From a virus: a stretch of 64,000 nucleotides of DNA. A model generated the notes under the pieces. The model made no database searches. It was not told the DNA's origin and saw nothing but the letters and a program-made list of their open reading frames with translations. The DNA lies in the IMG/VR virus record IMGVR_UViG_3300029258_002996; one strand, 5' to 3'. This document shows, one piece after another, positions 2,311-41,322 of the stretch. Each line of letters starts with the position of its first letter. The stretch's first letter is position 1. The translations under genes and the position numbers were made by a program.

Positions 2311-3648
2311 CTAAATATAAGGATTATTACTTGCAGCCACCTGCCAAAGCCTATGTAATTGTCGTGTAATTACCATACGTGGAAGATCAGTATCTAAGAC
2401 GATCTCCGGAATAGTAATCGGACCGGCTCGAAAAAACAACGGACTCAGAACTATAATCCCTTCAGCTCGTTCCGCTTTGGTTTGATCAATTGCAATGGAA
2501 ATATCGATTCCACGAGAAATATCGGTACTTAACCCACGATGGCCGATGTCGAGACGCTCGGATTTTGCCCCTTCAAGATTCGATTGGGATGCCTCGAAGA
2601 TAGCCACCCCATGTTCTTCGGCGTGATTCTTCAAATCCCAAACAATCTGCTTCTGTTGATGTCGTTCTTCCCTAAAATCTTTGGAAGGAGCGATGATATT
2701 CAGATAATCCCACACTTCTACGTCATGTGTTTCTCCGGTTTTGTCTTGGATACGTTTGATTTCATCGTTTATCTGCGGCACTGTTGTTTCCTGTGGGGTC
2801 GCCTTGATAACGTACAGTCGGTTTTTCCAGCTACGCATCCACTCGAAGGTCGCGTCCATTGCATCTTTTTCTTCTTGAGTAATCAACAAGTTCGAGATGC
2901 GGTCGTAGTTCAACTCACTGAACATTGAATCATACCGGTCCATCGTGAGTTCGAGGGAATTCTCGTAGGTAACGTGAATCGCGTTCCAACCCTGAAGAAG
3001 AAACGAGTACCCGAGCGCATTGAGCACGATGCTCTTGTACCGTTTAAACGGGGCGATGAAGTCAATGATCATCGGGGCTTTCAAGCGGAATTGCTGGTCT
3101 AGTCCAACAATGCCGGTCAGGATCCGTGGATTCAGATTCGGATTATCCCGAACCATCTTTCGTTGATGCTGCCGATCCTGATAGCTTTCGACGTAGTCAA
3201 CTACCGGCAATTTTCCTTCAGTGATGACGCTTCGAGCAATGTCGATGCCTTCGGCCACATCATTGATCAAGAAATCGATGCGGTCAGTGCGTTGAAAACC
3301 TTGAAAAGCATCCCGCACTTTGGAATTCACCGTGCAAAATGCAACATAAGCTTTGAACTTGTCGGCAGCGTCTGCCTCGAACGTCAGTTGACGAACGTAC
3401 AGCGCATAAAGCTGATTTCGGTACTTGCTGCGCTTCTCCTCGTCTTCAATTGTGAGCAACTGCTGATCCAGAAAATCGAAGGCGATGGGCTCCCAGTCTC
3501 TGTTCTTGAGAACTCGGGCAAACCACTGATAGGAGTCGATCTGGAAGTACTCGGGCTCAATATACGAGAGCAGCTCCGAATCCACGGCCTCGGACTTTTG
3601 GAGAATCGCGGAGAGGAACTCAGCCTCGACTTTTACGTCAATTTCCAT
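2311..3648 (-). CDS. DnaB-like replicative helicase with atypical Walker A
   Basis: APFKRYKS at Walker A position, HVTYEN, WDYLNII (Walker B-like), ASQSN; between loader and primase. Confidence 0.75.
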   Translation of the reverse strand: MEIDVKVEAEFLSAILQKSEAVDSELLSYIEPEYFQIDSYQWFARVLKNRDWEPIAFDFLDQQLLTIEDEEKRSKYRNQLYALYVRQLTFEADAADKFKAYVAFCTVNSKVRDAFQGFQRTDRIDFLINDVAEGIDIARSVITEGKLPVVDYVESYQDRQHQRKMVRDNPNLNPRILTGIVGLDQQFRLKAPMIIDFIAPFKRYKSIVLNALGYSFLLQGWNAIHVTYENSLELTMDRYDSMFSELNYDRISNLLITQEEKDAMDATFEWMRSWKNRLYVIKATPQETTVPQINDEIKRIQDKTGETHDVEVWDYLNIIAPSKDFREERHQQKQIVWDLKNHAEEHGVAIFEASQSNLEGAKSERLDIGHRGLSTDISRGIDISIAIDQTKAERAEGIIVLSPLFFRAGPITIPEIVLDTDLPRMVITRQLHRLWQVAASNNPYI

Positions 3649-7784: not shown

Positions 7785-8743
7785 TCAGACGCCGTTTCGA
7801 TGGCGTGAGAGTAGTCGTCAAAGACCTTCCCAGGCTCCGCAGTCGGGGGCAGGCTCGCCTTCATCCAGCGAACCACGAGGTCCACGATGGACTTGGCCAT
7901 AGGAACCACCTGGTTTCCCGAAAATCCGGCTGGATCGAAATCTTGATACGAGAACTTTTCGTAGATGTGCGCCGGTTCCACTCCGTAGCGGAGTAGCATC
8001 GAAACCGCGATGGCCCAGCAATCGGCCAAGCCCGCCACGGTCGAACCCTCTTTGCCTACGTCGATAAACACCTCTCCAGGCGTTCCGTCCGAGAAGCAAC
8101 TCACCGTAAAGTAGCCTTCCGTATCCCCGAGCTTGAACTTCACGGTGCGACTAGGGCGCTCAGCGTCCAAAGAAAACCATCGGGGAGGGGGGCAACTCCT
8201 CGGAGAAGGTTTCCTGTAATAAATCCTATCTTCGAGCAGGAACTTAGGAGGATCGAACCTCTCAGGCTCAATAAGATCGCCCCCCTTCCCTGCAAAATGA
8301 GAGTCAATCTGCCGATCAATCTTGGACCAATCGTACCACTCCAGAATTTTATCGATCTCTTTTTTAACGATTTGCAGAGGAGCGATATCACCGTTCGAAC
8401 CACCCCTCAAAAACTCGATCAAATTGAAGATGGCGTTACGCTCTTGGATTTCAAGATCCTGTGATTCGAGAAACGCCATCACGTCAAGAGAACCCTCCGG
8501 GAGCGACGGTGTCCAGTGACCGGCTCGCATTCGAGCTTCCAGAACCCCCAAGTACCACTTGGCCTTGGCTACATCCTCGCGACCCCCCTTCTTCCGATGG
8601 CGACAGAGATACTTAACGATAGACCCCTCCGCAAATCCCAGACCCCACAACTCGATGAAGTCGATAGGCTGATAGATCCCGGAATAATGTCCCTTTTCAT
8701 TCCCCGGAGAGTTTCTGTCGATTTTCAAAACGTTTTTAGGCAT
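7781..8743 (-). CDS. DUF3310-like domain fused to a TSCPD (class II ribonucleotide reductase C-terminal) domain
   Basis: N-term HY...QPIDFI..GLGFAEGSIVKYLCRHRKKGGREDVAKAKWYL; C-term GTPGEVFIDVGKEGSTVAGLADCWAIAVSMLLRYGV...FDPAGF...KSIVDLVVRW. Confidence 0.75.
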   Translation of the reverse strand: MPKNVLKIDRNSPGNEKGHYSGIYQPIDFIELWGLGFAEGSIVKYLCRHRKKGGREDVAKAKWYLGVLEARMRAGHWTPSLPEGSLDVMAFLESQDLEIQERNAIFNLIEFLRGGSNGDIAPLQIVKKEIDKILEWYDWSKIDRQIDSHFAGKGGDLIEPERFDPPKFLLEDRIYYRKPSPRSCPPPRWFSLDAERPSRTVKFKLGDTEGYFTVSCFSDGTPGEVFIDVGKEGSTVAGLADCWAIAVSMLLRYGVEPAHIYEKFSYQDFDPAGFSGNQVVPMAKSIVDLVVRWMKASLPPTAEPGKVFDDYSHAIETASE

Positions 8744-10310
8744 CTTCCGTCACCTTGTCCAAGAGGTTTTTCACCATTTTTTCGGCATACTGCATATTCT
8801 TCTCGTCCTGCTGATTGCGAAACGTTGAAGACGGATGAACGCAAACCGCCACTTTCGCCTCGATTTGCCCGATCATACCAGTCGGGCTCTCCAGTATTTC
8901 CCCGCAGTGCTTGCGCACACGGCTTCGATACGGCGTAAGCTGCATCATAGCCTCGTTCCCGAACGCAATAATAAACTTGGGGCGCAAAAGATCGATTTCG
9001 GCTCGTAAGTACCTGGAGCACGCCTTGATCTCTCCGAAAGTCGGCGGTCGGTTGTCCTGTGAGTAGCATTTGCAAGTGTTCGTGACCCAGCACTCGTCGC
9101 GAATGAGCCCGACGTTCGCCAAGAACTTTTCGAGACGACTCCCCGCAGGAGCCCCCGGAAAAAACGGTTTCCGATTTATCAACTCCTGCTCACCCGGGTT
9201 CCGACCGACGATCATGATCTCGCAGTTTTCGTGCCCCGAGGGAAGCGTGGGGCCGAATTCGGCACAATGCGACCTCAGCTCGCATTGGGCACACTCCAGC
9301 ATTGCATTATCGACTTCCAGCAGAGAGCCCCAGGAGGGCCTCTCAGACGGCGCGCAGTTCTCCATGTAGTTCACCATACCCTTCAGGTCGGCGGAGGACG
9401 TAGGGAGCAGCCTCTCTTGCTCAGCGTAGGATTTGCCGAACCGCTCGTACATCATCCGCACCCGGAAATCTTCCCGAGCGAGCGGCTTCTCGACCTCTTC
9501 CTTGAAAATGAGCATCTCGGCAGGGGAAAGGTAATAAATCGCCTCCCGCAGGGAGGGGATTTTCACAAGCCGATAGGTCTCGGCGATAAGTTCACCACTT
9601 TCCAGGATCCGAGCCGTGGTCTTGCGTTTCGACAGCTCTTTGATTTGATCCTTGTCAGGGAAGCACAAGGTACCGAGGTGCTCGTACTGCGCCAAGAGCT
9701 TTGCACCGGTCTTCGCCCCAATTCCCTTGACTCCAGGGATGTTGTCCGAAGCGTCACCCATCAACGACTTGAGATCGGCTACGCGCTCGGGCTCCACGCC
9801 AAAGGCGCTCTCGACGCCCTGCTCGTTGAACAAGGTGGAATGTAGATGATCGTAAACCAGGACCCGGGAGCTGACGAGCTGCCACAGGTCGCGGTCGCCG
9901 GTCGCAATCACTATCCGAGGATTTTGCCTGTTGTACAGGAGTGAGTAGTACTCGGAAAGCCACCCGAGCACGTCATCGGCCTCGACACCCGGAATAGTGA
10001 TCTGGCGAACCCCTACGGCGTTGAAGTAACGGCGGACGTAGCCCATCTGCTCTTTCACGAGCGCCAAGTCGACATCCTCGCGCTTCTTCTCCAGTCGGTC
10101 GGCCTTGTAGTCGGGGTAGATCAGCGAACGCCAGCGGGACTTTCCCCTGTCCCAGCAGATGACAACCTCTTGAGGACGGAAACGCTCCAGGATCTCGTAG
10201 AAGTAACGCACCACCTCCCCGGCGATACGGGATTCCTGGCTACTCTTGCGTTCGGCATAGGCCGCTCGCCAGACAAGAGGGTTTCCGTCTACCAGTAGAA
10301 CACACGGCAT
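8736..10310 (-). CDS. 5'-3' exonuclease (PolA/FEN) fused to a family-4-like uracil-DNA glycosylase domain
   Basis: LVDGN, YPDYKADR, EADDV, TGDRDLWQL, GDASDNIPGVKGIGAKT; then CAQC...GRNPG...TNTCKC...EIKAC...HPS. Confidence 0.88.
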   Translation of the reverse strand: MPCVLLVDGNPLVWRAAYAERKSSQESRIAGEVVRYFYEILERFRPQEVVICWDRGKSRWRSLIYPDYKADRLEKKREDVDLALVKEQMGYVRRYFNAVGVRQITIPGVEADDVLGWLSEYYSLLYNRQNPRIVIATGDRDLWQLVSSRVLVYDHLHSTLFNEQGVESAFGVEPERVADLKSLMGDASDNIPGVKGIGAKTGAKLLAQYEHLGTLCFPDKDQIKELSKRKTTARILESGELIAETYRLVKIPSLREAIYYLSPAEMLIFKEEVEKPLAREDFRVRMMYERFGKSYAEQERLLPTSSADLKGMVNYMENCAPSERPSWGSLLEVDNAMLECAQCELRSHCAEFGPTLPSGHENCEIMIVGRNPGEQELINRKPFFPGAPAGSRLEKFLANVGLIRDECWVTNTCKCYSQDNRPPTFGEIKACSRYLRAEIDLLRPKFIIAFGNEAMMQLTPYRSRVRKHCGEILESPTGMIGQIEAKVAVCVHPSSTFRNQQDEKNMQYAEKMVKNLLDKVTEDA

Positions 10311-10384
10311 ACCCCTAATCTACCGAATTGGTCTTGAAAAATGATCTAAATTAGACAAAAACAGCCCAAACAAGGTGGAGATAG

Positions 10385-10702
10385 TCACTTTCCTCCCCGA
10401 TATTCCTCTGTAGTTCTCCAGCGGCGTTTTTCCCATACCCGATCTGCGCGTTCTGCCCGCAACTGATGGGCTATTGCAACCGCATCTGAAGATAAGCGGC
10501 ACCAATACGCACCACGTCTTCTAGAATCGAGATCTTCGGAGCAAATTCGCCCAAATTTCACAAAACCAGCCTTGTCCCATTCTTGGGCTTTCGAGAAATC
10601 CGCTCCGTTCATGTTGGCCCCGTCAACCGTGCCCCCGTAATCAGTGGCTCTAGTCTCGAAGTACAACAGTAAAGACTTCTCTTCTTTGGTCAATTCAGTC
10701 AT
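10385..10702 (-). CDS. Hypothetical protein
   Basis: 105-aa ORF preceded by AAGGAG. Confidence 0.65.
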   Translation of the reverse strand: MTELTKEEKSLLLYFETRATDYGGTVDGANMNGADFSKAQEWDKAGFVKFGRICSEDLDSRRRGAYWCRLSSDAVAIAHQLRAERADRVWEKRRWRTTEEYRGGK

Positions 10703-10739
10703 TTTATTCTCCTTCTGGGGAGGAAATGTCCTCTTGTCT

Positions 10740-11141
10740 CTACTTCTTCGTCTTCTTGACCCCGTACTTGGAGCGTCCCTGGTTGCGCGGCATGATCTTA
10801 TCCTTCTCCTGTCGGACCCCCTCGCAGTCGGTGCGCCGCGCCCCCCGGATGACGTGGTACCGGACGCCCGGAAGATCCTTCACACGGCCCCCACGGATCA
10901 GGACGACGGAGTGTTCCTGAAGATTGTGATCGATGCCGGGTATGTAGCAAACCACCTCCTTACCGTTGGTCAACTTCACCCGGCAGCATTTACGATTAGC
11001 CGAGTTCGGCTTCTTCGGCGTCACCACGTAAACCCGAGTGCAAACACCTCGCTTCTGCGGGCAATTTCCCAACGCAGGGGACTTGCTCTTTTGGATCTTC
11101 TTCCTACGCCCGTGTTTCACGAGCTGCTGAATCGTCGGCAT
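10740..11141 (-). CDS. rpsL: 30S ribosomal protein S12 (uS12)
   Basis: Full-length: [49 protein letters not shown]; AAGGAG 5 nt before the second ATG (11141, MPTIQQL). Confidence 0.98.
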
Positions 11142-11376
11142 CATGTCTCCTTCTTGCGGACTTCTCTCGTTCTCGCCGCTTGCTTATTGCGTATTTGGTT
11201 GCGCGTCGGAAGCTTGCCAGCTCCACCTTACAGAGATCCAGCGCATTGTAGATCTTAGCGTTGTGTACGCCCGCGTCGACCATCTCGGCAGTAGCGGCGT
11301 CCAAGAGCGCCTGGACACGTTTCGTCGCTTCCAATCGCCGCTCTGCATCCTCCCCGCCCCACTTGTACTTACTCAT
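11104..11376 (-). CDS. Hypothetical protein overlapping the 5' end of rpsL
   Basis: 90-aa ORF; its last 38 nt lie inside rpsL in another frame. Confidence 0.55.
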
Positions 11377-11419
11377 TACAATCCTAACTTAGAAAACGCC
11401 TCACCGTGCTTTCGCATCA

Positions 11420-12505
11420 CTAAATGGGATCGACCCTCAGTGCGAAAGTGTCGTCGTTCTGAACGATCTCCTCGACTTCGCGAATGAACTCGTCAGGAAC
11501 GAGCTTCTTCGCTTTGGCCTCTTCCCACTTCTCGACATCGAGGGTGAAGCGCAGACAGTTCGAGGCCCAATCCTCAGCCGAGTTGGTAAGGAACTCCTCG
11601 ATCTTCTGAGTATCGCGCTTGATCGCAGGCTGCCCGGGGGTACGGATCAAGTGAGCCTTGTAACCGAACTCCTGAACGACGAAATCGCCTTTCTCGGGCT
11701 CGGACTCGGTACCATACTCGCGCACAAAACTCTCGATGGATCCGCGCTCCTCGCTGCTGACTTGTTTGAACTCTTTCTCGGCGGCGGACTTGGCCTTTTT
11801 CGCCTCTCCAAACCGCTTGATGCTCGGTTCGTAGCTCCTCAGAGCCGCCTCTTTCTTCTTCGCGCGTTCGGCTTCCTTGCGCTTGCTCTCCTCTTCTGCG
11901 GGATCCGTCTGGGGAGCCGCAGGAGGAATCACCGGAGGAGGCGGTGCAATCTGAGGGACCATTCCAGGCACCTCCAGAACACGCAAGCTGCCCTGGAGCA
12001 CGGCCTTTTCCGGAACCGCCCAGATAGCGCTGCCGCCGCGAACAGCGCAGAGCAGGGAAACGGAGCCATCCCCGGTCACTGAACGCTGTACCACCTTGGC
12101 CGGGGGGAGATTGTCGGCGGTCTGAGGACTCCAGTTTCCGGTCGCAGGATCCCTCCAGTAGAGGGTTCCAGTCAGCTCGATGATCGAGCCTTCCGGAATC
12201 TCCGTCAACTTCGGGGGAACCTCGACAGGAGCCGGAGTGATGGGCGGCAGCCCCTCTGCAACCGGAGGAACCGGACTATCTTCCGAAAGATTCTTCGCAG
12301 ACGATTCGGGCTGCTCACGTTCCGGCTTTTCCGGAGGGGAAATCTCCGGAGGAGCGGCTTCGGAAGAAGAACCTTCAGGGGAGGCAGAGTCATTCACCTC
12401 CTCCGAAAGCTCGATCCCCTCTTTGTGGACCTTCCCCATGTGAACCTTGAGACCGGCCACTGACTTGAAAGGTTTCTTGCAGATACTACAAACTTGGGTA
12501 GACAT
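11420..12505 (-). CDS. C2H2 zinc-finger, Pro-rich protein with a Gam/gp157-like C-terminus
   Basis: CSICKKPFKSVAGLKVHMGKVH; Pro/Glu linker; coiled coil then IKRDTQKIEEFL...LDVEKW...DTFALRV. Likely start ATG 12505 after GAAGGAG (ORF extends to 12580). Confidence 0.55.
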   Translation of the reverse strand: MSTQVCSICKKPFKSVAGLKVHMGKVHKEGIELSEEVNDSASPEGSSSEAAPPEISPPEKPEREQPESSAKNLSEDSPVPPVAEGLPPITPAPVEVPPKLTEIPEGSIIELTGTLYWRDPATGNWSPQTADNLPPAKVVQRSVTGDGSVSLLCAVRGGSAIWAVPEKAVLQGSLRVLEVPGMVPQIAPPPPVIPPAAPQTDPAEEESKRKEAERAKKKEAALRSYEPSIKRFGEAKKAKSAAEKEFKQVSSEERGSIESFVREYGTESEPEKGDFVVQEFGYKAHLIRTPGQPAIKRDTQKIEEFLTNSAEDWASNCLRFTLDVEKWEEAKAKKLVPDEFIREVEEIVQNDDTFALRVDPI

Positions 12506-12659
12506 GTTTCTTCTCTCCTTCTGCCCTACGATCCAGTCGAGAGCTTTTTCCGCGAAGTGCGAGACCACATCATCTACCATACCAAAACCCTCCTGTAAAC
12601 TTAGGATGGCAGTTTGTTCATACTACAGAGAGGGGAATCTCTTCCCCCAGAAACCCATA

Positions 12660-13259
12660 TCACTTTTTACTTCTCTGACTCCACCTACGTAGAACTGAAC
12701 GAGAAATTACATCTACAGCAAACGCAGTCATGGAGACCCCGGCAAGCTTCGCCAACCTCCTAAGCATATCGTGGATACTTTTCGGAATCGGCAACAACAT
12801 ATTCTGAAACTCTTCAGGTTCGTACAGAACGCCGGTCAACTCCCATGAACGCCGGGAGCCGGATTCAAAGCCCCGAACTACTCCAAGCTTCCTCAATATT
12901 CGTAGGTTATTCCCAAGCTCCTTGGGAGACGGGATTTTTTCGTTCATCTTGAAATAGTGGGCGATTGCCTCCTCGATGAATTTTCTATCCTCGGCGGAGA
13001 CTTCTTTCCGACTACCGATCTTGCGCCGGTCGACGCCTTCGTAACGCTTTTTCCAGATGGTGGAATAGTAAGTGTTTAATTTTTCGATAAGCACGTCCAT
13101 ATCATTCGCAGAAACTCTTCCGGAATGACGGCGCGTACACATTTTGAAGTAGTGCGCTAGCATTTCGGACGATAGGAACTCCTCATCATAGAGAATTTCC
13201 ATCGCCCAAATAATTAGGATCCGCTCTACGTTTACTCTGTCGATACTTTTTCGGGTCAT
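12660..13259 (-). CDS. Putative DNA-binding regulator (C-terminal ribbon-helix-helix-like)
   Basis: LLPIPKSIHDMLRRLAKLAGVSMTAFAVDVI. Confidence 0.5.
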   Translation of the reverse strand: MTRKSIDRVNVERILIIWAMEILYDEEFLSSEMLAHYFKMCTRRHSGRVSANDMDVLIEKLNTYYSTIWKKRYEGVDRRKIGSRKEVSAEDRKFIEEAIAHYFKMNEKIPSPKELGNNLRILRKLGVVRGFESGSRRSWELTGVLYEPEEFQNMLLPIPKSIHDMLRRLAKLAGVSMTAFAVDVISRSVLRRWSQRSKK

Positions 13260-13287
13260 CTACTTTCTCGCTACAGCTACTACCACA

Positions 13288-13315
13288 TATATACCAGAAT
13301 AGTAGATCCTGTCAA
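13288..13315 (-). promoter_or_regulatory. Sigma70-type promoter
   Basis: TTGACA then TGGTATATAT about 16-17 nt downstream, intergenic. Confidence 0.5.
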
Positions 13316-13360
13316 TAGTTACAAAAAGGTGATCGCTGAAATTAAAAGGCATTTTCTCGT

Positions 13361-14290
13361 TCACTCCCCATGATATCGAGACTCCTTGTACTCCTCCCAA
13401 CTCATGCTCTTAAGGGCTGGCTTGAAATTCACCCATCGTGCGAAGTGGGCTTGGAGTTTCGTGGGCGGAGTTCCTTCTCGATCTATGTAGGGCTGCGCAT
13501 GAGGGTCCACGTAGAGCGTCTTCAGAACCTTCAGCCGCTCTAACGCCTCCTCGATGTCCTTCACCAACATGTAGCAACAATATCTGGCCGGAGTTACGTT
13601 ATTCCATCTCAGATTCGCCACTGCCTTCACCGCGTACTTGATCTGACTCTGGCTATCGCACGCGATCCGGAGAGGTTCGAGCCATTTCACCTTCGCCAAC
13701 AACCGCGCCATCGAATCGTCGATAAAGCGAGCGTCAAGACCCTGGTTGAAGTCCACTTTGACACCGAGCTTCGCGATTTTTTCTATCTGGGCGATGCCGT
13801 GATCGCTGGCGAGGATGTTGTTGTCCATAATGATAACGGAATCGTGCCGCAGGAACTCCTCGATGTCCGCGTGCGCTCGAAGCTTCCCCTCCTTCTCCGG
13901 TACGAAACAGAAACTGCACTTGCGGTCGCAACCTCTCGTGAGAAAACCGAACGAACTCTTGGTTTTGTATAAGTCGTAATCCGGGCAGATATGCTCAATC
14001 TCGTCGGGAAGCCATTCCGTGTAGCCGTAGCCGAATCCTCCACAACGAGCTGTAGGGGGAAGGTCCGGGTCCGCCTCGGAATACGTAAAAACCCGACTGG
14101 AATAGATTAGGTCGAACGGCCCCGGATCCGCCGGAATGAACCCTTCAATACCTTTGAACCACCCGACCGAGTCCCCGCGAGCTTTGTGCCACGCAGAGAG
14201 CTTCATCAACGCCAGATTGGGGAATACGTCTCTCTTCCTTTTTTTAGAAATAGGGGTTGGCTTATCAGGTGTGTGTAGTCCGACTCGCAT
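13361..14290 (-). CDS. Radical SAM protein (phage type)
   Basis: TRGCDRKCSFC (CxxxCxxC), PNLALMKLSAWHK, MDNNIL, DFNQGLDAR. Confidence 0.88.
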   Translation of the reverse strand: MRVGLHTPDKPTPISKKRKRDVFPNLALMKLSAWHKARGDSVGWFKGIEGFIPADPGPFDLIYSSRVFTYSEADPDLPPTARCGGFGYGYTEWLPDEIEHICPDYDLYKTKSSFGFLTRGCDRKCSFCFVPEKEGKLRAHADIEEFLRHDSVIIMDNNILASDHGIAQIEKIAKLGVKVDFNQGLDARFIDDSMARLLAKVKWLEPLRIACDSQSQIKYAVKAVANLRWNNVTPARYCCYMLVKDIEEALERLKVLKTLYVDPHAQPYIDREGTPPTKLQAHFARWVNFKPALKSMSWEEYKESRYHGE

Positions 14291-26599: not shown

Positions 26600-28033
26600 T
26601 TAGCTCACCAAGTTCACGACCAAATCAGCAGCCTCGATTCTAGCATACCGATTTGGTCCGATTGCGAGGTCACCCACTCCGGAACCACCCTGAACTGCCA
26701 GTGTCGTCCAGGTCCAGTTTCCAACCCCGAAGACCTTCGAGATCTCCGCATCTAGGTCGAACTCCTCCACGTCCTCTCCGAGACGTAATGCATTGATGTA
26801 GTTCGTGATCCGGTCGCGCACGAGCTGAACCACGGAATCGGGATTTCCCGACGTGACCGTCAGGTTCCCCTCGATTGACAGAAGCTGCGGTTGCGCCCAC
26901 CTGAACAAAACGTCGGATCCCATCACGAAGTATCGAGATTGGCGATAGTAGGAGGTGATCACGTTGATGAGGGAGTTGTACTGGTATTCGATGTGAACGG
27001 AAGTCCCTACGGCAGGGAAACTCCCAGTCGCCAAGAACTTGATACCGCCCTGAGCCCGGTTGCTGTATCCGTAGACCCCCTCCCCACGAATCACTTCATA
27101 GTCGGTCCCCTCGATGTACGTGACCGGTCCTGCGCTCGTCACCAAGTTCACCTGAGAAATCGGCTGCCGGGGAAGCGGGATCAACGTCTCGACCCCGGGA
27201 AACGCGATGTCGTAGGAAGCAGACAGTGGCGTATCTCCGAGAATCCACATGTCCACGGCCCCTGCATCATCTTGCTCCCGCTCCAGGTTCACATTGTTCC
27301 CGTAGACCACGTAGGTATCGATGACGCCGGAGAAGGTATCTTCGAGGAACCTGGCGAGGCCAGCCGGGGTAGAGGTTTGATGACCCTCCACCTGCATGAG
27401 GTAGCGTGCGGCGAGATCCGAGTTCGTCTCGCGCCCGAGGCCGGAAGTCGTGGCAAACTTGTTGTAAAACTCGTCAAACTGCGGGAAAGGCCTTTTGGCG
27501 ACGGTAATCGTGTACGCACCGACTTGAGTAGTGGAGCCGCGAATGATGCTCGCACAAGCTACGTTCAACTCGTACCGTTCAGTCTCCGCGTTGTAGTAGG
27601 CGCTCGCCGGTGTCGACAGGGGTCCGTACATGATTCTTGACTCGACCGTTCGGAAATCCACAACCTCTCCGGTTTCGGGATTGAGAACCGTCGAAAGGGG
27701 GAAGTTGATGGGAACCAGAATGTCCGCAGTTGGAGGACGAATGCGAGCGAAGGTAACGGTCACGTAGGAAGGTGATCCCTCCCAACGAACAATGGCTTCG
27801 TTGTACACAAAATCGTCCAAATCTTCCGGGTTGAAACGAGCCGCGTTTTTGAGCGACATGAGCTGGCTGAGATAGACGATGTTGTCGTGCTGGTCCTTGA
27901 AGACCTCGGACGGAGGAGTGATGTACAAATCCTTGATAGGTCCGATTCTGGTGTCCAACGAAGGATCACGGGATTCGATTCCTTCGGTAATCTCGTTTTC
28001 GAACTCTGGTACTGTTTTCGCTCGAATGACCAT
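26600..28033 (-). CDS. Baseplate J-like wedge protein
   Basis: GLGRETNSDLAAR, GAVDMWILG, ITNYINALRLGEDV; follows gp25-like gene. Confidence 0.8.
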   Translation of the reverse strand: MVIRAKTVPEFENEITEGIESRDPSLDTRIGPIKDLYITPPSEVFKDQHDNIVYLSQLMSLKNAARFNPEDLDDFVYNEAIVRWEGSPSYVTVTFARIRPPTADILVPINFPLSTVLNPETGEVVDFRTVESRIMYGPLSTPASAYYNAETERYELNVACASIIRGSTTQVGAYTITVAKRPFPQFDEFYNKFATTSGLGRETNSDLAARYLMQVEGHQTSTPAGLARFLEDTFSGVIDTYVVYGNNVNLEREQDDAGAVDMWILGDTPLSASYDIAFPGVETLIPLPRQPISQVNLVTSAGPVTYIEGTDYEVIRGEGVYGYSNRAQGGIKFLATGSFPAVGTSVHIEYQYNSLINVITSYYRQSRYFVMGSDVLFRWAQPQLLSIEGNLTVTSGNPDSVVQLVRDRITNYINALRLGEDVEEFDLDAEISKVFGVGNWTWTTLAVQGGSGVGDLAIGPNRYARIEAADLVVNLVS

Positions 28034-33550: not shown

Positions 33551-36457
33551 CTACCCAGTTCCTTGATCCTTTCCACCCACCATGTATTGAGCGGCAAATT
33601 GAGATGCACCGCCCTTCGCTTCGTCTTCAGGACGCATGACTACGCGAGGAGCCGCTTGACGCGCCTTATAAATTCTTTGGTACTTTCGATTAAGCTGCTG
33701 CGCATCCTCGGCTTCTTCCCCACGGCGCGAATAAACCCGAAGAACCGCCCCCGGAGTATTGCTCGGCAGATTCATCACGTTCACCATGCGATCTCCCTGG
33801 GCAAACAACGGTCTCGTCGGGTCCATACCAGCTTTTACGCTTTGTTTCGCTACGTAGTTTCGTGCGGCATGATAGAAATGAGTGCCGCCTTGCGTCGGAT
33901 CTTCGACTTCTCCACCGAGCAATCTTCTAGCCATTCGGAGAGATTCTGGAGAGGCTTCATGAGTGGTTGCGTAGGGCCTTTTCTGACCTTGCTTCCCGTA
34001 ACCGGCTCCGCGCGTCAAAATATCGTAAATATCCCCACTCTTGCCCTTCTTCAACTCTTTCTTAACTCGGTTCAACAGAGTCCAGCCAATGACTTCCGCT
34101 TCTTCCCCCCACGCCTTGTGGACGGTTTCCGTCTCCAGCATTCGCGCAAGTGCTTCCACCTCCCGCGCTTGATAATCTTTGTCAAAAATGCCCTTTTCCA
34201 CCTCAAGAGGTCGGTCCTCCGGAGCTTCCGCACCAAACACAAAACCGCATCGAGGACAGTTTCCTACGATTCCGACCGTAATATTCCCCTCTTGATCTAC
34301 ACTACTAACTTCCAAATTGATGCCGCCGCCGACCCAATAATCCGAAGAAAAACCCGGAGATTCTCGACGCTCTTTAGAAACCGGAATCGTGACCTGGGGC
34401 ATGAAGCGAGTTGGCTGAGCTGTCGCCAGATCCACCAAAGGCATCGTAACCGGTCGCACGGTAGGCTGACTCGGTTGCCACATACCTCCAGGCAACGCAA
34501 TCCCTTGTCGTGGAAGTTCCTGCTCCGGGATCCCCCCTCGCGCAACACCTGCAAAAGACCCCGGAGCAGGCGGAGCGCCCCGGTCTCCCTCCCGCACCGG
34601 AGCCGAAGGATCAAATGCCCACGCGCTCTGGACATTTTTAAGAGAGGACCCGAGAATGTCCATCCCCATGCTCTTCGCAGCAGCAGCCATCTGGTTAACG
34701 CCGCGCGACATCTTGTCTCGATGTTCCCCCTTCATTCCATAGAGATTGTTAATCTTGGACATCAGCTCGACGTTTTTGTCGAAGTCTCCACGGAGAATAT
34801 TGCTCAAAAAATCTGGAATAGATTTGAAGAATGCGATCAGCCATGCGAGTGTTTCGACCGCGAGGCTCAAAAGACCCTGACCAAGTTTCGCAATGCCCTT
34901 GTTCCAGATATTCATCATGATCTCGAACTGGCTCGTTTTCTTCTGTTCCAACTGAAACGATTTGGCCAAAACCCCCATGCTCTCTTCGGTCGCCTTCGCC
35001 GCTTCCACCATCTTGCCCTCTTTCGCAAGATTGTAGAGCTTGGCCATCGCCCGAGCACCCTCGTATCCGAACTTGGCCTCCAGGAACTCCCGAGCGTAGG
35101 TTTCATCACCGCCAGTCGCGTCGAGAGCAATCTGGAACAGGGTCTTCGCGACTTCCAGGAACCGATTGGTATCCTTTCGATTCAAAGCCCGCTGGAGAGC
35201 GTCCTTGAGGCTCTGAGCGGCTCGAATCCCCTCCCCATGCCCTAGACGCTCCCCAACCAAGATCGCCCAATCATTGCCCATCTGAGCAATCCCAGCGGCG
35301 AGCTGCTGCAACCCCTCGGCAGCAACACGGCCCGCAAACTGCTTCGGAACCCCCATGTCCTCATAAGCCTTCCCCAAAGTCTTGGCAAGATCCATCACAT
35401 CCCGAATGTTATAACCAAGACCGGCCAGAGACTCCGCAGCCGCCTCCACGTTTCTCACGAAATAAGGCTGTCCGATGCCCTCCCGACCTTCCATGTAGAG
35501 GTCGGTAACAGCTTCCCGGGCCTCGTCCGTAGTCAACGCATACTTGGCCATGTAGTCAACCATTCGTCGCGCGCTCGTACCTCCGGGAAGCTCAAACATA
35601 AGATCCAAGGCGTGAGAAACGGTTTGAGTCGTGCTCTCGACCCCTTTCAAGGTGATCCCTACTCGTTGCTCGATTCGTTCGATGGCGACGCCGCCGTCAA
35701 CGAATGCTTTCGTAACTCCCTGAGTTTCTGATTTATGGATCCCATAATACTGTTGAAGATGCTCTTGCAGACCGGAAAGATTCCGGGTAGCCGCGCGAGT
35801 AGCAGCGTTCAACCCGCCATCATACGCCGCGACGAGAATGTTCTGCATCTCGCCCGCTTCGGCACGTACCCGATCTTTGTCGAGAAACCCAGCCTTCATC
35901 CAGTTGACGATTCCTGAAAGTACGCCGCCCGGCAACGGAATCTTCAGACTGCCAAGCATCCCCTTGATGTTGTTCCAAAAAGAGGAAAGCTCGGTATCCA
36001 TGATGGTCAGCGGGGCGCGCGCCAGTCCCGTCAATTCTCGCTTCAACCAACTCTTCTTTTCTTTAGATTTATCTTCGTCGGATTTAATTACCCCAGCTTC
36101 CTGAGCCATCTGAAGAAGATCGACAGCATCTCCTGAGAGTTTTCCAAAGTTTTCGTTGGCCGCGTCCACGGTGGAATCGAGCTTGTCAAAAGATTTTTCC
36201 ATGTTCTTGGACATGGAGCTGTATTGCCCCGCTACATTGGCCACATATTGATCGCTCAAGTTTACCAATCGGCTCGCTTTTTTGAACTCCTCACTCCCCA
36301 CCAAAACGCCCACCGCAGAACTGAAATGTCCGATAGAGCGGAAAGTTTCATCAAAAAGCTGAGAGTTGGTTTTTGAAAGATCCTCGACCGCGACTCCGAG
36401 ATCGGTAAACCGCTGCTTGGCAGCATCGAGCTGAGTTATGTCGACAAAGTCAGCCAT
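33551..36457 (-). CDS. Tape-measure-like protein 3 with C-terminal SleB/Hydrolase_2-like cell-wall hydrolase
   Basis: Helical core paralogous to the two upstream genes; EVEALARMLETE...IGWTLLNRV...DPTQGGTHFY. Confidence 0.72.
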   Translation of the reverse strand: MADFVDITQLDAAKQRFTDLGVAVEDLSKTNSQLFDETFRSIGHFSSAVGVLVGSEEFKKASRLVNLSDQYVANVAGQYSSMSKNMEKSFDKLDSTVDAANENFGKLSGDAVDLLQMAQEAGVIKSDEDKSKEKKSWLKRELTGLARAPLTIMDTELSSFWNNIKGMLGSLKIPLPGGVLSGIVNWMKAGFLDKDRVRAEAGEMQNILVAAYDGGLNAATRAATRNLSGLQEHLQQYYGIHKSETQGVTKAFVDGGVAIERIEQRVGITLKGVESTTQTVSHALDLMFELPGGTSARRMVDYMAKYALTTDEAREAVTDLYMEGREGIGQPYFVRNVEAAAESLAGLGYNIRDVMDLAKTLGKAYEDMGVPKQFAGRVAAEGLQQLAAGIAQMGNDWAILVGERLGHGEGIRAAQSLKDALQRALNRKDTNRFLEVAKTLFQIALDATGGDETYAREFLEAKFGYEGARAMAKLYNLAKEGKMVEAAKATEESMGVLAKSFQLEQKKTSQFEIMMNIWNKGIAKLGQGLLSLAVETLAWLIAFFKSIPDFLSNILRGDFDKNVELMSKINNLYGMKGEHRDKMSRGVNQMAAAAKSMGMDILGSSLKNVQSAWAFDPSAPVREGDRGAPPAPGSFAGVARGGIPEQELPRQGIALPGGMWQPSQPTVRPVTMPLVDLATAQPTRFMPQVTIPVSKERRESPGFSSDYWVGGGINLEVSSVDQEGNITVGIVGNCPRCGFVFGAEAPEDRPLEVEKGIFDKDYQAREVEALARMLETETVHKAWGEEAEVIGWTLLNRVKKELKKGKSGDIYDILTRGAGYGKQGQKRPYATTHEASPESLRMARRLLGGEVEDPTQGGTHFYHAARNYVAKQSVKAGMDPTRPLFAQGDRMVNVMNLPSNTPGAVLRVYSRRGEEAEDAQQLNRKYQRIYKARQAAPRVVMRPEDEAKGGASQFAAQYMVGGKDQGTG

Positions 36458-36460
36458 TTC

Positions 36461-39004
36461 TTAACCCGGGGGTAAAACCTTCTTTCCCGAAACCGCCAAA
36501 GAAGCCGGAATAAGACGCACCCCGGCATCTCCGGACAAACCCGCCGTAGTATCATCCGAATAGTCGCGCAGAGTGAACTTACCCTCAGTATCCTGCTCTG
36601 CTCTTCTCTTCGCTTGCTCCTTTATATGATCGCGAGTCCGGTCTCGGATGATTTCCCCGTGCGTCCGTCCTTCTCGTTCCACATTGAGAATGCCGGTCTC
36701 GTTCAAAACAAAACGTGTCATCGGAGGAGCGAGGACTTCGAGACCGGGAACGACTTCTCCCATATTCTTCGCAAAACCCAACGCGCTCTCTACCGATTGA
36801 GCAGCAGTAGGATCGTAAGTGCCTGAGATGCGCTCTAGCTCACGACCACCGGGACTCCACCGACGACCGGTGTAGGGATCGATGGCAATTTGATTCATCC
36901 AAACCAAATCCCCGCTTTCCGTTTTCTTTTTCATCCAATCGGGCGCACGTTGAGGAGCGGCTTCACCTCGCATGTATTGTTCGGCAAGCTCTTGAGCCCT
37001 TTCCGATTGCTGCAACTCTTCGGGAGACATCGACGCCAACTTATCCAGATCTTGTTGTCTCGGAGGTTCGTAGTACTTTTGCCTACCAAAAAATAAATTC
37101 AAGATAGTCCCCACGGTGCCAGGAAACATTGCCGAGAGTTTCTGGGACGAATTGTACAAAGAATCCTCAATCTTCTGCCAGTTGGTCCCCATATCACGCC
37201 AAATAGAAGAAACCTTTTCCCACAGACGATCCATCACCAGATCAACCTCACCTGACTTGAACCCGTAGTAAAGAGCTGGGAAAGTTTTTACACCTACGAT
37301 GAGAAGAGCAACAATATTGGTAAGGATCCCAAAAAGACCCTCCGAAACACCAGAAATCATATCGATCAATTCACGACGGGTAACATCCAAGGTCGAAACC
37401 GCCTCACGCTCACGACCAAACGCATCTTTCAGGTTCCGAACCTGGCTTTTATCCAGATCGGCCAACTTACCAACTTCACCCAGTTCCTCCGTCAAATCGT
37501 GAATCAACGCCGCGTCGCCAACCGAAACACTTAGAATATCGCTGACCGCCATGATTCTCTGGGCACGGCTTCCTGCCAACTGACGCATCACCACGTTAGA
37601 AAAGGCTTTCAAAAGCTTTTCGAGAAACTCGTCACTACCCCCACCCTCTTTCAAACGACTTAGACCGTCCTTGAACTGCTGCACGAGATCGAGTCCGCGC
37701 GCCTGCTCATCCCCCGTAATGTCGCGCATCAGCTCGATTTTCAATTTATCTCCGATATTTTGAAATGCCTCCAACAAATTTACAGCCACGCCCACTGCCT
37801 GTCGTCCTGCGAATTTTCGATTGAGACCCATCTCCTCGTAATGATCGGTGATTCGGTTAACCATGACCGCCACGAATTCAACATTGCCGCCGAGCTTTCG
37901 AAGCGCATCCTCACTATCCAAGACGGCTCCAATGAATTTTTCAGTACCGATTCTACTTCGTTGCGCGGCCCCTGCGATTTTCATGTAGGATTTAAGTGCT
38001 TCGTGAGCGCCCATCGCGTAGTTGTGCATAAACTCCACGGCACGCTGCATTGAAGTTCCGTCCGCGACGTGAAAGTGCTTATCGAGCGCCAAGGAAGCTT
38101 TCACTACGTTGTCCCCGACACCGCCAAGACCTTTGTCAAATTCCTTCAAAAAATCGTCCGCCTCTACTCCGGCATCGACGAGCAGCTTAGCAGTCGCCTG
38201 TACATCTTTCCGCGCGAGTCGATACCGCCACTGAGCGTGTTCTGCGAAGCTGCTCAGGTTACGAACCGCTCGTTGAGTTTTCCCACTCATCAAAGAATCG
38301 AAAGAAGATTGAAAAACGTTCGCCATCTCCCCTAGCTCAGCGCGCTTACGATCTTTCTCCCGGTATCCAATCGAAAGAGCCCCGAACAGCCCGCTGACAA
38401 AACCTCCACCGAGCCGGGAAAGTTTATCGGGGAGCTTCTTTAACAAATCTCCGATTCCTTCGTAAGCTTTCAAAACAGCAGCTTCAATTTTACTGGTGGC
38501 TTCCCGAGATTCCTTCGCGGCTTCCTTTCGAACGCCAAACACACCTTCGGAAGCTTTCATAGTTTCCTTGAAAGTCCCTTTGACCTCTTCTTTTGCGCTC
38601 TTCATGTCACGCTCGGCCATGCCAATCGCAGACTCTACCGATTGATGTTGCGGATCCTGCGGCGACGGTTTTTTCTTGAAAACTTTATCGAGCTTCACCT
38701 CTTTCATTGTCGCAAGGTTTTCTACGATCCGCCTCGCCTCCCGTTGTTGAGCCTCCAGATAAAAAGCGATGCGCCCCTGGTCGGCGGCTCCGAGTGGGGC
38801 GGGCTCCGGGAGACTTGCCAAAGCGGATGATATCGGCAAATCCATCCCCAACGTTAAATCGTAAAACGAAGACACATCCTGAGCGGTGCCGACCGCGATG
38901 TCCTGAACGGTCGCTCCAAATTCGGTATAGGAACGTTGAAGATTCGCAACCTGACTTTGCAAACCAGTAAGATCAAGTTCTACCTTTGGTATTTCCTCAG
39001 CCAT
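36461..39004 (-). CDS. Tape-measure-like protein 2
   Basis: Helical, 847 aa; GEMANVF, FAEHAQWRY, HYEEMGL. Confidence 0.65.
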   Translation of the reverse strand: MAEEIPKVELDLTGLQSQVANLQRSYTEFGATVQDIAVGTAQDVSSFYDLTLGMDLPISSALASLPEPAPLGAADQGRIAFYLEAQQREARRIVENLATMKEVKLDKVFKKKPSPQDPQHQSVESAIGMAERDMKSAKEEVKGTFKETMKASEGVFGVRKEAAKESREATSKIEAAVLKAYEGIGDLLKKLPDKLSRLGGGFVSGLFGALSIGYREKDRKRAELGEMANVFQSSFDSLMSGKTQRAVRNLSSFAEHAQWRYRLARKDVQATAKLLVDAGVEADDFLKEFDKGLGGVGDNVVKASLALDKHFHVADGTSMQRAVEFMHNYAMGAHEALKSYMKIAGAAQRSRIGTEKFIGAVLDSEDALRKLGGNVEFVAVMVNRITDHYEEMGLNRKFAGRQAVGVAVNLLEAFQNIGDKLKIELMRDITGDEQARGLDLVQQFKDGLSRLKEGGGSDEFLEKLLKAFSNVVMRQLAGSRAQRIMAVSDILSVSVGDAALIHDLTEELGEVGKLADLDKSQVRNLKDAFGREREAVSTLDVTRRELIDMISGVSEGLFGILTNIVALLIVGVKTFPALYYGFKSGEVDLVMDRLWEKVSSIWRDMGTNWQKIEDSLYNSSQKLSAMFPGTVGTILNLFFGRQKYYEPPRQQDLDKLASMSPEELQQSERAQELAEQYMRGEAAPQRAPDWMKKKTESGDLVWMNQIAIDPYTGRRWSPGGRELERISGTYDPTAAQSVESALGFAKNMGEVVPGLEVLAPPMTRFVLNETGILNVEREGRTHGEIIRDRTRDHIKEQAKRRAEQDTEGKFTLRDYSDDTTAGLSGDAGVRLIPASLAVSGKKVLPPG

Positions 39005-41322
39005 TAATCTGACGGTGGAAGTGTCCGCTCCTTGTGTTTGATATCCGCCTGGGCGATTGCTTCAGAAGATATGACCACTTCGGCACGCCGAGGGTTTGCC
39101 ATGATTTCGCGCTCTTTGGCGTTGGCTAACGGTTCTGGCTTGGCCCGCTCTTGGTCACGCACTGCCTTGACTTCGGAACCGCGAGGCATTCCAGGATGCT
39201 TCGGAGGCGGTTCGCTTTCTTCCGTAGCCGAGTCCGGAGGAGCTACCGCAGGGGGTTCCGGGGTCGCAGACTCGGGGATCCGTTTACCTACGGTCCCCGC
39301 AGCTCCGGTCGCAAGCCCTTTCGCCGCTCTCCAGGCACCTTTGAACAGTTCAATTGGGCTTCCGGACGTACCGCGACCCACAACTCTCGGAGTCGTCGGC
39401 TGATCTTCCCTACGAGGTCCTTCAAGGTTTCCACTCGCAGCTCGTTTCAATATATCCAGCGGACCGCCTAGAGCCTCTGAGACTGATCCCGGAACTTCTT
39501 CCAGCCCTTCCATTGCCTGGACGACTCCCTCCCCCAAAGTTCCGACGAGCATTTTCATCTCGTCACCGATCTTCGTCAGCTCCCGATTCCCCTCTTCCCC
39601 TCCCCTTAAAGTAGCGCTGATAAGACGAGGCAACGAAGTGATGCCTACCGTCAGGATAGCCAAAATTGAAGTCAAAACCTTCAAAAGACCGTTCCCAACC
39701 CCAGCCAAAGCGTTGATAAGCTTCCTTTCCGTCTGTTCCAACGTGGAAACCGCTTTTCTATTGATCTCGAACGCCTGCTGAACTGCGCGCTTCTGTTCCG
39801 GAGCAAGCTTTTGAAAATCGTTGTACTTCTTGAGTTCCTCCCGCGCATCCAGCAACGTAGCTGCTGTCTGGGTCTGCATGCCTTGGTTTTCCAAAAACAA
39901 GATAGCTTCGGAACGACCACGACCCTCCAGAGCCCACGCGGTAAGGTGCATGGTCGCTTCGACAAGGAAACCTTCGTCCTCACCGCGAGCAGCTCGGGCA
40001 GCCCCCTCCTCGTACTTTACGAATGCTGCATGCGCCTCCATGCCAGGGAACATCCGACGCGCTAGCTCAAGCTTGGAACTACTGCCAAGGTTGGCTACGG
40101 CGCCCGTGTAGTTATCTACAAACCGAGCTGCCATTTCCCCAGCATGCTGCGGATGGAGTCCCATTCGGCGATAGTGCCGCTCGATATTCACCATAATGTT
40201 CGCAACATCACGAACGTCGATACCGTATTGCTGCATCGCCGAAGCACCGGACATCACCGCGTTGATGAACTTGTCGATTCCGGCCCCGCTGCGCTGCGCA
40301 GCCATCCCGAAACCGATGTAATCCTTAGTCGCCTTCTCCAACGTGTCACCGTAGTCAGAAACCAAGGTAATCACGTTTGACATCGCAGTACCCTGAGCCC
40401 TGTGGAGATGGGCATCCAGCGCCATTGTGGCAACTACGGCATTCTGACCAACGTACCCCAAGTCTTCGCTAATTCTTTTTTCGAAATCCTCGCGTCGATA
40501 TCCAGCTTGCGCCATCTGACTGACAACGCCCTGCGTTTCTTCCTTGCTGATCCCGTAAAACCACTGAGCGTGTTCTTGAAAAGCACTGAACCATCCAATG
40601 GTTTTTTCGAGAGACCCCGGGCCTGAAAGTCGCTCACCGGTAGCTTCCAGTACGTTGGCCATTTCCCCGCGTTGCGCGGTGAGGCGCGCGTCCTCTTTCC
40701 TACCCAAAATCATCCAGTTGATGAGCGTGCCGATGACTCCCCCACCGACCCCTGGAATGTTACTCAAGAGACTTCCAAGAGACTGTTTCAGCCCCTTCAA
40801 TTCACTTTCCGCGTACTGTAAGAGTTGCGCAACACCTTTTTTGAACACTTCCAGCTCGTCTTTCAACGTGCGCTTCATCTCTTTGTGCTGCTGCTCGACT
40901 TCGGACATCGTGGCACGCGCCACATCCGCCATCTCCAGGACTGCCTTGATTTCTTTCGAGACGCGCTGAAGCTCCGGAGGAGTCCCGACGCCTGCTTCGC
41001 CGCCAACCTGGATCCCAGACAAGCGACTCATGTTGGCGGCTACGGTTTCGCTCTGCCTAGAAAGATTTTCAAGATTTCGGACCGTGGAGCCCATGCCTCG
41101 CTGAATCGATTGAGCCGATTGATCCAGTTGCGGAATCATGGTTTGCAGAGAGGCTGAAACTCCTTCTGTGGATTGTCTGAGAGCTTGCGTATCGGTGGTC
41201 GCAGCGTTCACTACCTCACGCACTGCCATGCCGAAATCGGTATAGTCCCGCGTCAGCTCGTTGATCTGATTATCGAACTCAGAAAAATCAAACGAAAGCA
41301 GATAGTCTTTGGCAACCGCCAT
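39004..41322 (-). CDS. Tape-measure-like protein 1
   Basis: Helical, 772 aa, directly after the chaperone frameshift product; GEMANVL, FQEHAQWFY, HYRRMGL. Confidence 0.68.
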   Translation of the reverse strand: MAVAKDYLLSFDFSEFDNQINELTRDYTDFGMAVREVVNAATTDTQALRQSTEGVSASLQTMIPQLDQSAQSIQRGMGSTVRNLENLSRQSETVAANMSRLSGIQVGGEAGVGTPPELQRVSKEIKAVLEMADVARATMSEVEQQHKEMKRTLKDELEVFKKGVAQLLQYAESELKGLKQSLGSLLSNIPGVGGGVIGTLINWMILGRKEDARLTAQRGEMANVLEATGERLSGPGSLEKTIGWFSAFQEHAQWFYGISKEETQGVVSQMAQAGYRREDFEKRISEDLGYVGQNAVVATMALDAHLHRAQGTAMSNVITLVSDYGDTLEKATKDYIGFGMAAQRSGAGIDKFINAVMSGASAMQQYGIDVRDVANIMVNIERHYRRMGLHPQHAGEMAARFVDNYTGAVANLGSSSKLELARRMFPGMEAHAAFVKYEEGAARAARGEDEGFLVEATMHLTAWALEGRGRSEAILFLENQGMQTQTAATLLDAREELKKYNDFQKLAPEQKRAVQQAFEINRKAVSTLEQTERKLINALAGVGNGLLKVLTSILAILTVGITSLPRLISATLRGGEEGNRELTKIGDEMKMLVGTLGEGVVQAMEGLEEVPGSVSEALGGPLDILKRAASGNLEGPRREDQPTTPRVVGRGTSGSPIELFKGAWRAAKGLATGAAGTVGKRIPESATPEPPAVAPPDSATEESEPPPKHPGMPRGSEVKAVRDQERAKPEPLANAKEREIMANPRRAEVVISSEAIAQADIKHKERTLPPSD

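Follow-up and report, generated by a model that had tools for sequence, protein, structure and literature searches.

The stretch of DNA analysed here (the window; 64,000 nt) corresponds to bases 7623-71622, reverse strand, of a 127,888-bp IMG/VR record estimated by CheckV to be 71% complete. On its minus strand lies a gene for ribosomal protein uS12 (rpsL-like; 10740..11141), which encodes 133 amino acids followed by a stop codon and has an alternative start one codon earlier, at 11144. Translated from the latter, the ORF (10740..11144, minus strand) comprises 134 amino acids with a double-Met N-terminus, MMPTIQQL. The sequence 5′ of the uS12 start (reverse complement) is AAGAAGGAGACATGATG, in which a Shine-Dalgarno motif, AAGGAG, can be read at 11147..11152 (minus strand), inside the 3′ end of a second small ORF, the partner gene described below. 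The spacing to AAGGAG is 5 nt for the second ATG (11141) but only 2 nt for the first, which makes the second the likelier uS12 start and 10740-11141 a better gene model than the 134-aa ORF; the public gene call P0001 has the same length as the 133-aa model.

Family assignment was unequivocal. The protein scored 121.3 bits against Pfam PF00164 (E=2e-35; cut-off 22.3) and 197.3 bits against the NCBIfam equivalog TIGR00981 (rpsL_bact; cut-off 112.95 bits), with residues 1-132 covering model positions 1-123, and solved bacterial uS12 chains aligned with it from end to end (E~1e-49). PHROGs holds no family matching the window uS12. An AF2 model (mean pLDDT 80) has an OB-fold core with five beta strands at residues 29-98 and an insertion loop at 101-120 of lower confidence. 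The product of 10740-11141 is thus clearly predicted, far above chance, to be a full-length bacterial-type uS12, and the claim in the preliminary description of an intact gene with its own ribosome-binding site stands. On the opposite strand, an ORF of 204 aa (10644-11258, plus strand) faces uS12 and the partner gene, and a naive longest-ORF caller favours it over S12; it is almost certainly no gene but a shadow of the codon-biased, GC3-rich S12.

Genomic context and assembly of the uS12 locus

Hallmark phage genes share the contig with uS12 and mark it as part of a bona fide viral genome. They include genes for a portal (60653-62491), a head maturation protease (58131-59048), a major head protein (54111-55385), two tape-measure-like proteins (36461-41322) and a baseplate wedge (26600-28033), in addition to replication and repair genes (SNF2 helicases, the family A DNA polymerase PolA and an SbcC-like ATPase). 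The tape-measure position as a whole (33551-41322, minus strand) is occupied by three consecutive large genes, of 772, 847 and 968 aa, two of which weakly match PHROG 167 (tape measure; E ~5e-6).

Nearly all genes are co-oriented, and the neighbours of uS12 all run in its direction, as had been described previously. In the order of transcription, the structural module is followed by a few small genes (ParB-like, radical-SAM-like, Arc-like and zinc-finger), then by uS12 and then by an exonuclease/helicase module. Immediately downstream of uS12 is a gene for a 105-aa phage protein of unknown function (10385..10702, minus strand; PHROG 15089, E=1e-17), which is not kept beside S12 elsewhere, since the neighbours differ in L010, L013, L015, L017 and L018. 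The replication/repair module 3′ of S12 then starts with a gene fusion (8736..10310, minus strand), whose 524-aa product combines a 5′-3′ exonuclease, represented by its N-terminal and SAM-fold domains, with a domain of the uracil-DNA-glycosylase (UDG) superfamily. The placement of uS12 in an early/replication region, as first proposed, needs correcting: the gene lies where the structural module meets a replication/nucleotide-metabolism module, a position that does not support the term 'early'. A 1318-aa protein near S12 in L013 was considered as synteny with a 1317-aa protein of the window and rejected, the two proteins being unrelated. A scan for promoters and terminators around the uS12 module yielded nothing above chance, PADLOC defence-system models gave no match near uS12, and neither end of the 127.9-kb record has a CRISPR-like array.

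In cells, uS12 (RpsL) is encoded by the first gene of the str operon, rpsL-rpsG-fusA-tuf. The window gene does not sit next to rpsG and fusA but among phage genes, and neither S7 (PF00177) nor EF-G/EF-Tu (PF00009) found a match anywhere in the 127.9-kb record, where S12 itself occurs once. The gene had been described as carried alone, and as regards S7, EF-G and EF-Tu this is so; it is nevertheless accompanied by the 90-aa partner ORF that overlaps its start.

That such a gene might have reached a phage contig through a chimeric join was examined in independent assemblies. An identical uS12 protein is encoded, with unchanged neighbours, on nine contigs of 50-200 kb, and contigs that carry this protein reach 182 kb. 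The 1.2-kb stretch around uS12 is complete in four sequencing runs from three studies (sediment 2018, seawater 2021), and in each of the four a single Logan contig (64-135 kb) spans positions 8000-14000 with 0 differences and a word depth of 87-128. The four runs may include the source sample; the separate assemblies nonetheless agree over both junctions. Because several independent assemblies from three studies are identical, the uS12 locus is not chimeric. The 6-kb identity between sediment and seawater across three studies suggests that the phage forms a single abundant clone, that the samples were enriched by culture or that the studies had sample material in common.

A conserved partner gene overlaps the uS12 start

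The partner gene (11104..11376, minus strand; 90 aa) overlaps the start of uS12 with its 3′ end by 38 nt, in another frame. Its homologues lie directly upstream of uS12 in otherwise differing neighbourhoods (blastp E 1e-8 to 1e-23), and a family profile, which the window partner matches with 93 bits, places the partner upstream of S12 in ten distinct loci (the window, L002, L010, L013, L015, L017, L103, L104, L106 and L107). With the same profile no partner was detected upstream of S12 in L005, L008, L018, L114 or L116, and the context listing of P0019 has no partner-like small ORF at this position. Conversely, starting from the partner, uS12 was found to come next after two distant homologues, P0139 and P0143, whose surroundings look phage-like and contain SSB, dCMP deaminase and metallophosphatase genes. 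By these criteria of gene order, partner and uS12 are a conserved two-gene phage module.

The junction between the two genes is tight throughout: partner and uS12 overlap by 22-80 nt in seven of the ten loci and abut within 36 nt in the other three. All ten have a purine-rich GGAG-type motif before the S12 start, within the codons for a partner RKRExR motif. The conservation of this basic motif is partly explained by the purine-rich codons doubling as the S12 ribosome-binding site, and the 'CRPSIS' C-terminal tails of several partners are the S12 MPTINQL codons read in another frame. Partner and uS12 are, on this arrangement, probably translationally coupled.

The partner family itself is rare. 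Its profile, run against 1.84 billion representatives, retrieved only ~24 small relatives; a word-based homologue search recovered only the partner itself, and nothing significant was found in Pfam, PHROGs, NCBIfam or PADLOC. In the AF2 model (pLDDT 91.8) two helices, 8-34 and 40-89, form a hairpin, and the C-terminal tail of the protein is basic; comparison of the fold by ESM Atlas and Foldseek against the PDB returned generic helical hairpins only (Rop-like and designed hairpins). A two-residue basic insertion after the RGA motif of uS12 was present in 9/10 uS12 proteins with a partner, in 1/6 without one and in 0/64 cellular sequences parsed, counts that ignore shared ancestry; it hints that the insertion may contact the partner. 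In L015 (3896-4516) and L016 (910-1530), the gene just downstream of partner and uS12 weakly matches PTH2 (peptidyl-tRNA hydrolase), and if this match is real, a second translation-related gene lies beside the module there.

The uS12 belongs to an old phage lineage

Searches among 185,579 prokaryotic species (one genome each) gave 70-71% identity for the best cellular uS12, with equally good matches scattered over many phyla, all of them carrying the signatures GxGHNLQEH and PNSA[LM]RK. Metagenomic relatives of the window uS12, in phage-type context, reach 73-82% identity. Every close relative whose context could be read, namely P0008 (~170-kb contigs from three independent assemblies), P0005, P0012, P0025, P0026 and P0019, lies among small unannotated or phage-type genes, without rpsG or fusA.

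In IMG/VR, just 13 of 2.9 million contigs carry S12. Copies with S7 adjoining are of cellular type (L003, L004, L007 and L111) and probably represent contamination; stand-alone copies are found in L002, L005 (96 kb), L008, L106 (442 kb, complete), L107 (193 kb, complete), L114 and L116. In INPHARED, 19 tblastn matches (55-70% identity) were not counted as phage uS12, since they are probably bacterial contamination, judged by names and identity; among them are whole-genome shotgun contigs under wrong labels (Salmonella, 'Acinetobacter phage MD-2021a') as well as fragments that lack annotation.

In a carefully built maximum-likelihood tree with 90 sequences, 37 rows, comprising 35 of phage type and two of unknown context, are split from 53 cellular rows (UFBoot 95 / SH-aLRT 90). 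This split was present in 96% of bootstrap trees, and quick trees agreed with it. Genomic context was examined for 16 of the 35 phage-type rows, none of which (0/16) lies in a str operon, and the remaining phage-type rows were assigned by sequence signature. Other phages carry uS12 too, and its absence from related phages, which the preliminary description would have counted against the claim, does not apply. Nearest to the window uS12 in the tree are P0003, P0009, P0004 and L106. The nearest cellular sequences come from uncultivated lineages that also have a C-terminal insertion; among these, P0064 is in a canonical rpsL-rpsG-fusA operon, and the P0029 cluster includes a sequence from a Dehalococcoidia MAG. 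The trees do not include P0002 (211 aa, on a 1222-bp JGI contig), a metagenomic protein whose S12 sequence is partially duplicated in tandem, starting at the PQKRG motif.

The tree, envisaged earlier as a means of finding the donor, resolved the phage clade but gave no cellular phylum as its sister with support (<=64). Since sister support is weak and uS12 has a long phage history rather than being a fresh capture, no donor can be named. From its position in the tree, the window uS12 is placed as a long-resident gene of a phage lineage, and recent capture from a host is excluded.

We also compared structural genes between carriers. The major head protein and portal of the window are 35% and 30% identical, respectively, to those of L106 (442 kb, a module carrier), and its portal is 25% identical to that of L114 (a 72-kb record; CheckV 45% complete), whereas neither window protein has a detectable match in L107 (complete, 193 kb, likewise a module carrier). 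With head and portal genes of carriers ranging from related to unmatched, the partner-uS12 module must be old or be moving between phage groups. The preliminary description had overlooked both the conserved partner and the long phage ancestry of uS12.

Selection, conserved residues and clade-specific changes

Pairwise dN/dS within the phage clade was 0.06-0.24, with dS near saturation, and was low over the full length of uS12, both tails included. These values indicate that phage uS12 is under purifying selection and not decaying, and so settle the earlier concern about decay.

Residues are numbered as in E. coli with Met as 1, such that H77 here is His76 in numbering without the initial Met. 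Across 31 clade members, K43, K44, P45-N46-S47-A48, D89, P91, G92, H72 and H77 do not vary, and R86 and K88 are invariant or almost so; the window protein has all of these residues. Both basic tails are kept as well, including the N-terminal tail and the C-terminal RSKYG. Divergence at positions nearly invariant in cells was scored against 170 cellular sequences and comprises T39V (T in 170/170), L49N (L or M in cells), V52C, L102T and G71D. The last is characteristic of the clade, with D in 29/31 members vs 4/170 others and G in 166/170 cellular sequences. The window protein has, in addition, the two-residue basic insertion after R99-G100-A101 (the RGA motif) and a seven-residue insertion before RNQGRSKYG, whose columns are gapped in ~93% of non-clade sequences; an insertion at this second site also occurs in some uncultivated cellular lineages (P0064 and P0035, in str-type operons).

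In cells, no protein other than uS12 is known at the decoding site, where uS12 sets the balance between speed and accuracy and relays codon recognition to EF-Tu. K88 is a classical streptomycin-resistance and accuracy position. With wild-type K43 and K88, the window uS12 is not expected to confer a streptomycin phenotype. The uS12 of both L114 and L116 (IMG/VR contigs of 72 kb and 117 kb, with S12 at ~3001-3400 of each locus) has Pro at K88 (GGRVPDLPGV), and the partner is absent from both. On the ribosome, uS12 reaches into the decoding centre, and its surface overlaps EF-G domain III and RRF (PMC5960728). His76 (numbering without Met) is critical for dityromycin/GE82832 binding and for EF-Tu signalling, and changes at Thr57 and Val78 (same numbering) lead to miscoding (PMC5960728). 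G71D sits in the same loop, six residues before His76/H77, and by its position may alter factor interaction.

Other translation components and codon use

The phage encodes one further translation component that could be recognised, a tmRNA that lies outside the window, on the plus strand of the record (G000:C1:122569-122909, equivalent to L102:11569-11909). It matches Rfam RF00023 over its full length (88.8 bits, E=8e-33), and ARAGORN reads its tag as AEEQLQEAA. SmpB, bS21 and PTH2 were not found in the 127.9-kb record, nor were group I or II introns or any Rfam RNA besides the tmRNA in the 128 kb. In its use of phage-preferred codons S12 ranks 97/98 among the phage genes, and its GC3 (0.77) is ~2 SD above the phage mean (0.60).

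Discussion

We consider it fairly probable that the phage uS12 is built into 30S subunits during infection and changes their behaviour at the decoding and factor-binding surface. Incorporation is favoured because conservation covers exactly those features that are needed only in the ribosome, and because the codon-preference rank and the consensus ribosome-binding site hint at strong expression. The protein would be produced in quantity in the infected cell and would take the place of host uS12 in 30S subunits. It would bring with it changes next to the decoding loop, in the second shell (T39V, L49N and V52C), in the factor-facing loop (G71D) and in two surface insertions, and the resulting ribosomes would differ from those of the host in tRNA selection, in translocation or in sensitivity to inhibitors directed at uS12. 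In such a scheme the partner would most likely serve uS12 specifically, whether by chaperoning or delivering this very basic protein or by binding alongside it, a role that we assign purely by conjecture. The main difficulty is that uS12 lies outside the set of exchangeable ribosomal proteins, so that incorporation would need ongoing 30S assembly or some exchange mechanism as yet unknown.

A bolder form of the same proposal would meet this difficulty through the partner, cast as an exchange or assembly factor: it would load the phage protein on the 30S subunits of the host, or else evict or block the uS12 of the host itself. The outcome would be 'phage ribosomes' in which decoding or factor interaction is changed and which favour phage messages or resist shut-off by host or phage. 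We regard this form as unlikely.

The principal rival has uS12 work away from the ribosome, perhaps together with the partner, whether as RNA chaperone, as translational or transcriptional regulator, or as a decoy that titrates a host factor recognising uS12 (for example RimO, an assembly GTPase or a defence sensor). Such a role has precedent in the RNA-chaperone activity of E. coli S12 on T4 group I introns; it would sidestep the non-exchangeability that makes incorporation harder, and a dedicated partner fits a free-standing complex equally. However, the residues with known functions in the ribosome are all invariant in the clade, dN/dS is low over the full length, and the protein passes the TIGR00981 equivalog cut-off by a wide margin. 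The chaperone alternative in particular is weakened by the lack of any group I or II intron in the 128 kb, where the tmRNA is the only Rfam RNA. Off-ribosome use, one of the functions put forward initially, is weakened by these observations, and we judge it improbable.

A variant of incorporation, to which we give slightly less weight again, is that the phage uS12 enters the ribosome to protect it from an inhibitor directed at uS12 rather than to retune decoding; since the one is a variant of the other, the likelihoods attached here to the several explanations are not meant to make up a whole. Candidate inhibitors are a host-shutoff factor made by the phage itself, an abortive-infection toxin of the host, or antibiotics from the environment such as dityromycin/GE82832 or aminoglycosides. 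The clade-defining G71D in the His76 loop, which is the site of dityromycin/GE82832 and of EF-G domain III, would fit such protection, as would the unchanged decoding loops of the window uS12 and the K88P of L114 and L116. Yet K43 and K88 of the window protein are wild type, no inhibitor gene was identified, and the defence-system models gave no match nearby.

Finally, the gene might be recently acquired or mis-assembled host DNA without a function in the phage, as its high GC3 and the many database 'phage' S12 matches that are bacterial contamination would allow, but this is effectively refuted by identical independent assemblies from three studies, a phage-only clade, a partner conserved in ten loci, purifying selection, a maximal identity of ~71% to cellular proteins and a codon choice that matches phage preferences.

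If incorporation is accepted as the preferred reading, a phage lineage of uS12 under strong selection, with its own partner and in phages of ~130 kb up to 442 kb, would imply that phages can reach into the core of the host ribosome, and the data suggest that some phages alter this core, beyond the exchangeable surface proteins. Two small genes would then make a directly testable system for the replacement of a core protein during infection. The effects of positions 39, 49 and 71 and of the two loop insertions on fidelity, frameshifting, translocation and inhibitor sensitivity could be tested likewise.

Comparison with known systems

Compared with bacterial uS12, the window protein is alike in its ~70% identity over the full length to proteins from many phyla, in its decoding loops, in H72 and H77 and in its basic tails. 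It differs in being encoded by a phage, without S7, EF-G or EF-Tu, and in being paired with a gene that cellular str operons lack. The classical streptomycin alleles of rpsL lie at K42, K87 and P90 (numbering without Met). As with such accuracy and resistance alleles, natural variation of uS12 clusters beside two surfaces, one formed by the decoding loop and the other by the 70s loop that faces the factors, whereas in the window protein K43, K88, P91, T58, V79 and H77 (Met as 1) are wild type. We know of no characterised rpsL alleles at the changed residues 39, 49, 52 and 71.

Full-text searching of the published literature brought up no relevant report of a phage-encoded uS12. The translation genes of huge phages described by Al-Shayeb et al. 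(2020) comprise S4, S1, S21, L7/L12, initiation factors, tRNAs and aminoacyl-tRNA synthetases (PMC7162821); uS12 is unlisted there, and 'ribosomal protein S12' is absent from the first 200 supplementary files (PMC7162821). The window phage resembles those in being a large phage with several translation components (here uS12 and the tmRNA) and differs from them in being smaller (~130-180 kb).

The virus-encoded set of Mizuno et al. (2019) consists of bS21, bL12, bL9, bL31, bL33, bS6, uS9, uS15 and HPF (PMC6375957). In that study the S12 profile PF00164 was among the queries, and uS12 appears neither in the main text nor among the reported proteins (PMC6375957). Its absence from the reported proteins of both studies agrees with the initial impression that uS12 is no recognised phage gene. 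Like the members of the Mizuno set, the window uS12 is a single ribosomal-protein gene carried by a phage, evolves under purifying selection and is presumed to replace a host protein. Those proteins are mostly peripheral, loosely bound and exchangeable, whereas uS12 is a core protein of the decoding centre, and none of them has been described with a dedicated partner gene. bS21, bL12, bL9, bL31 and bL33 are named as dynamic and exchangeable, and uS12 is not among them (PMC6375957). Thus, the peripheral, exchangeable viral ribosomal proteins known so far fit simple swapping on mature ribosomes and uS12 does not belong with them; what is new here among virus-encoded ribosomal proteins is a core decoding-centre protein with a dedicated partner.
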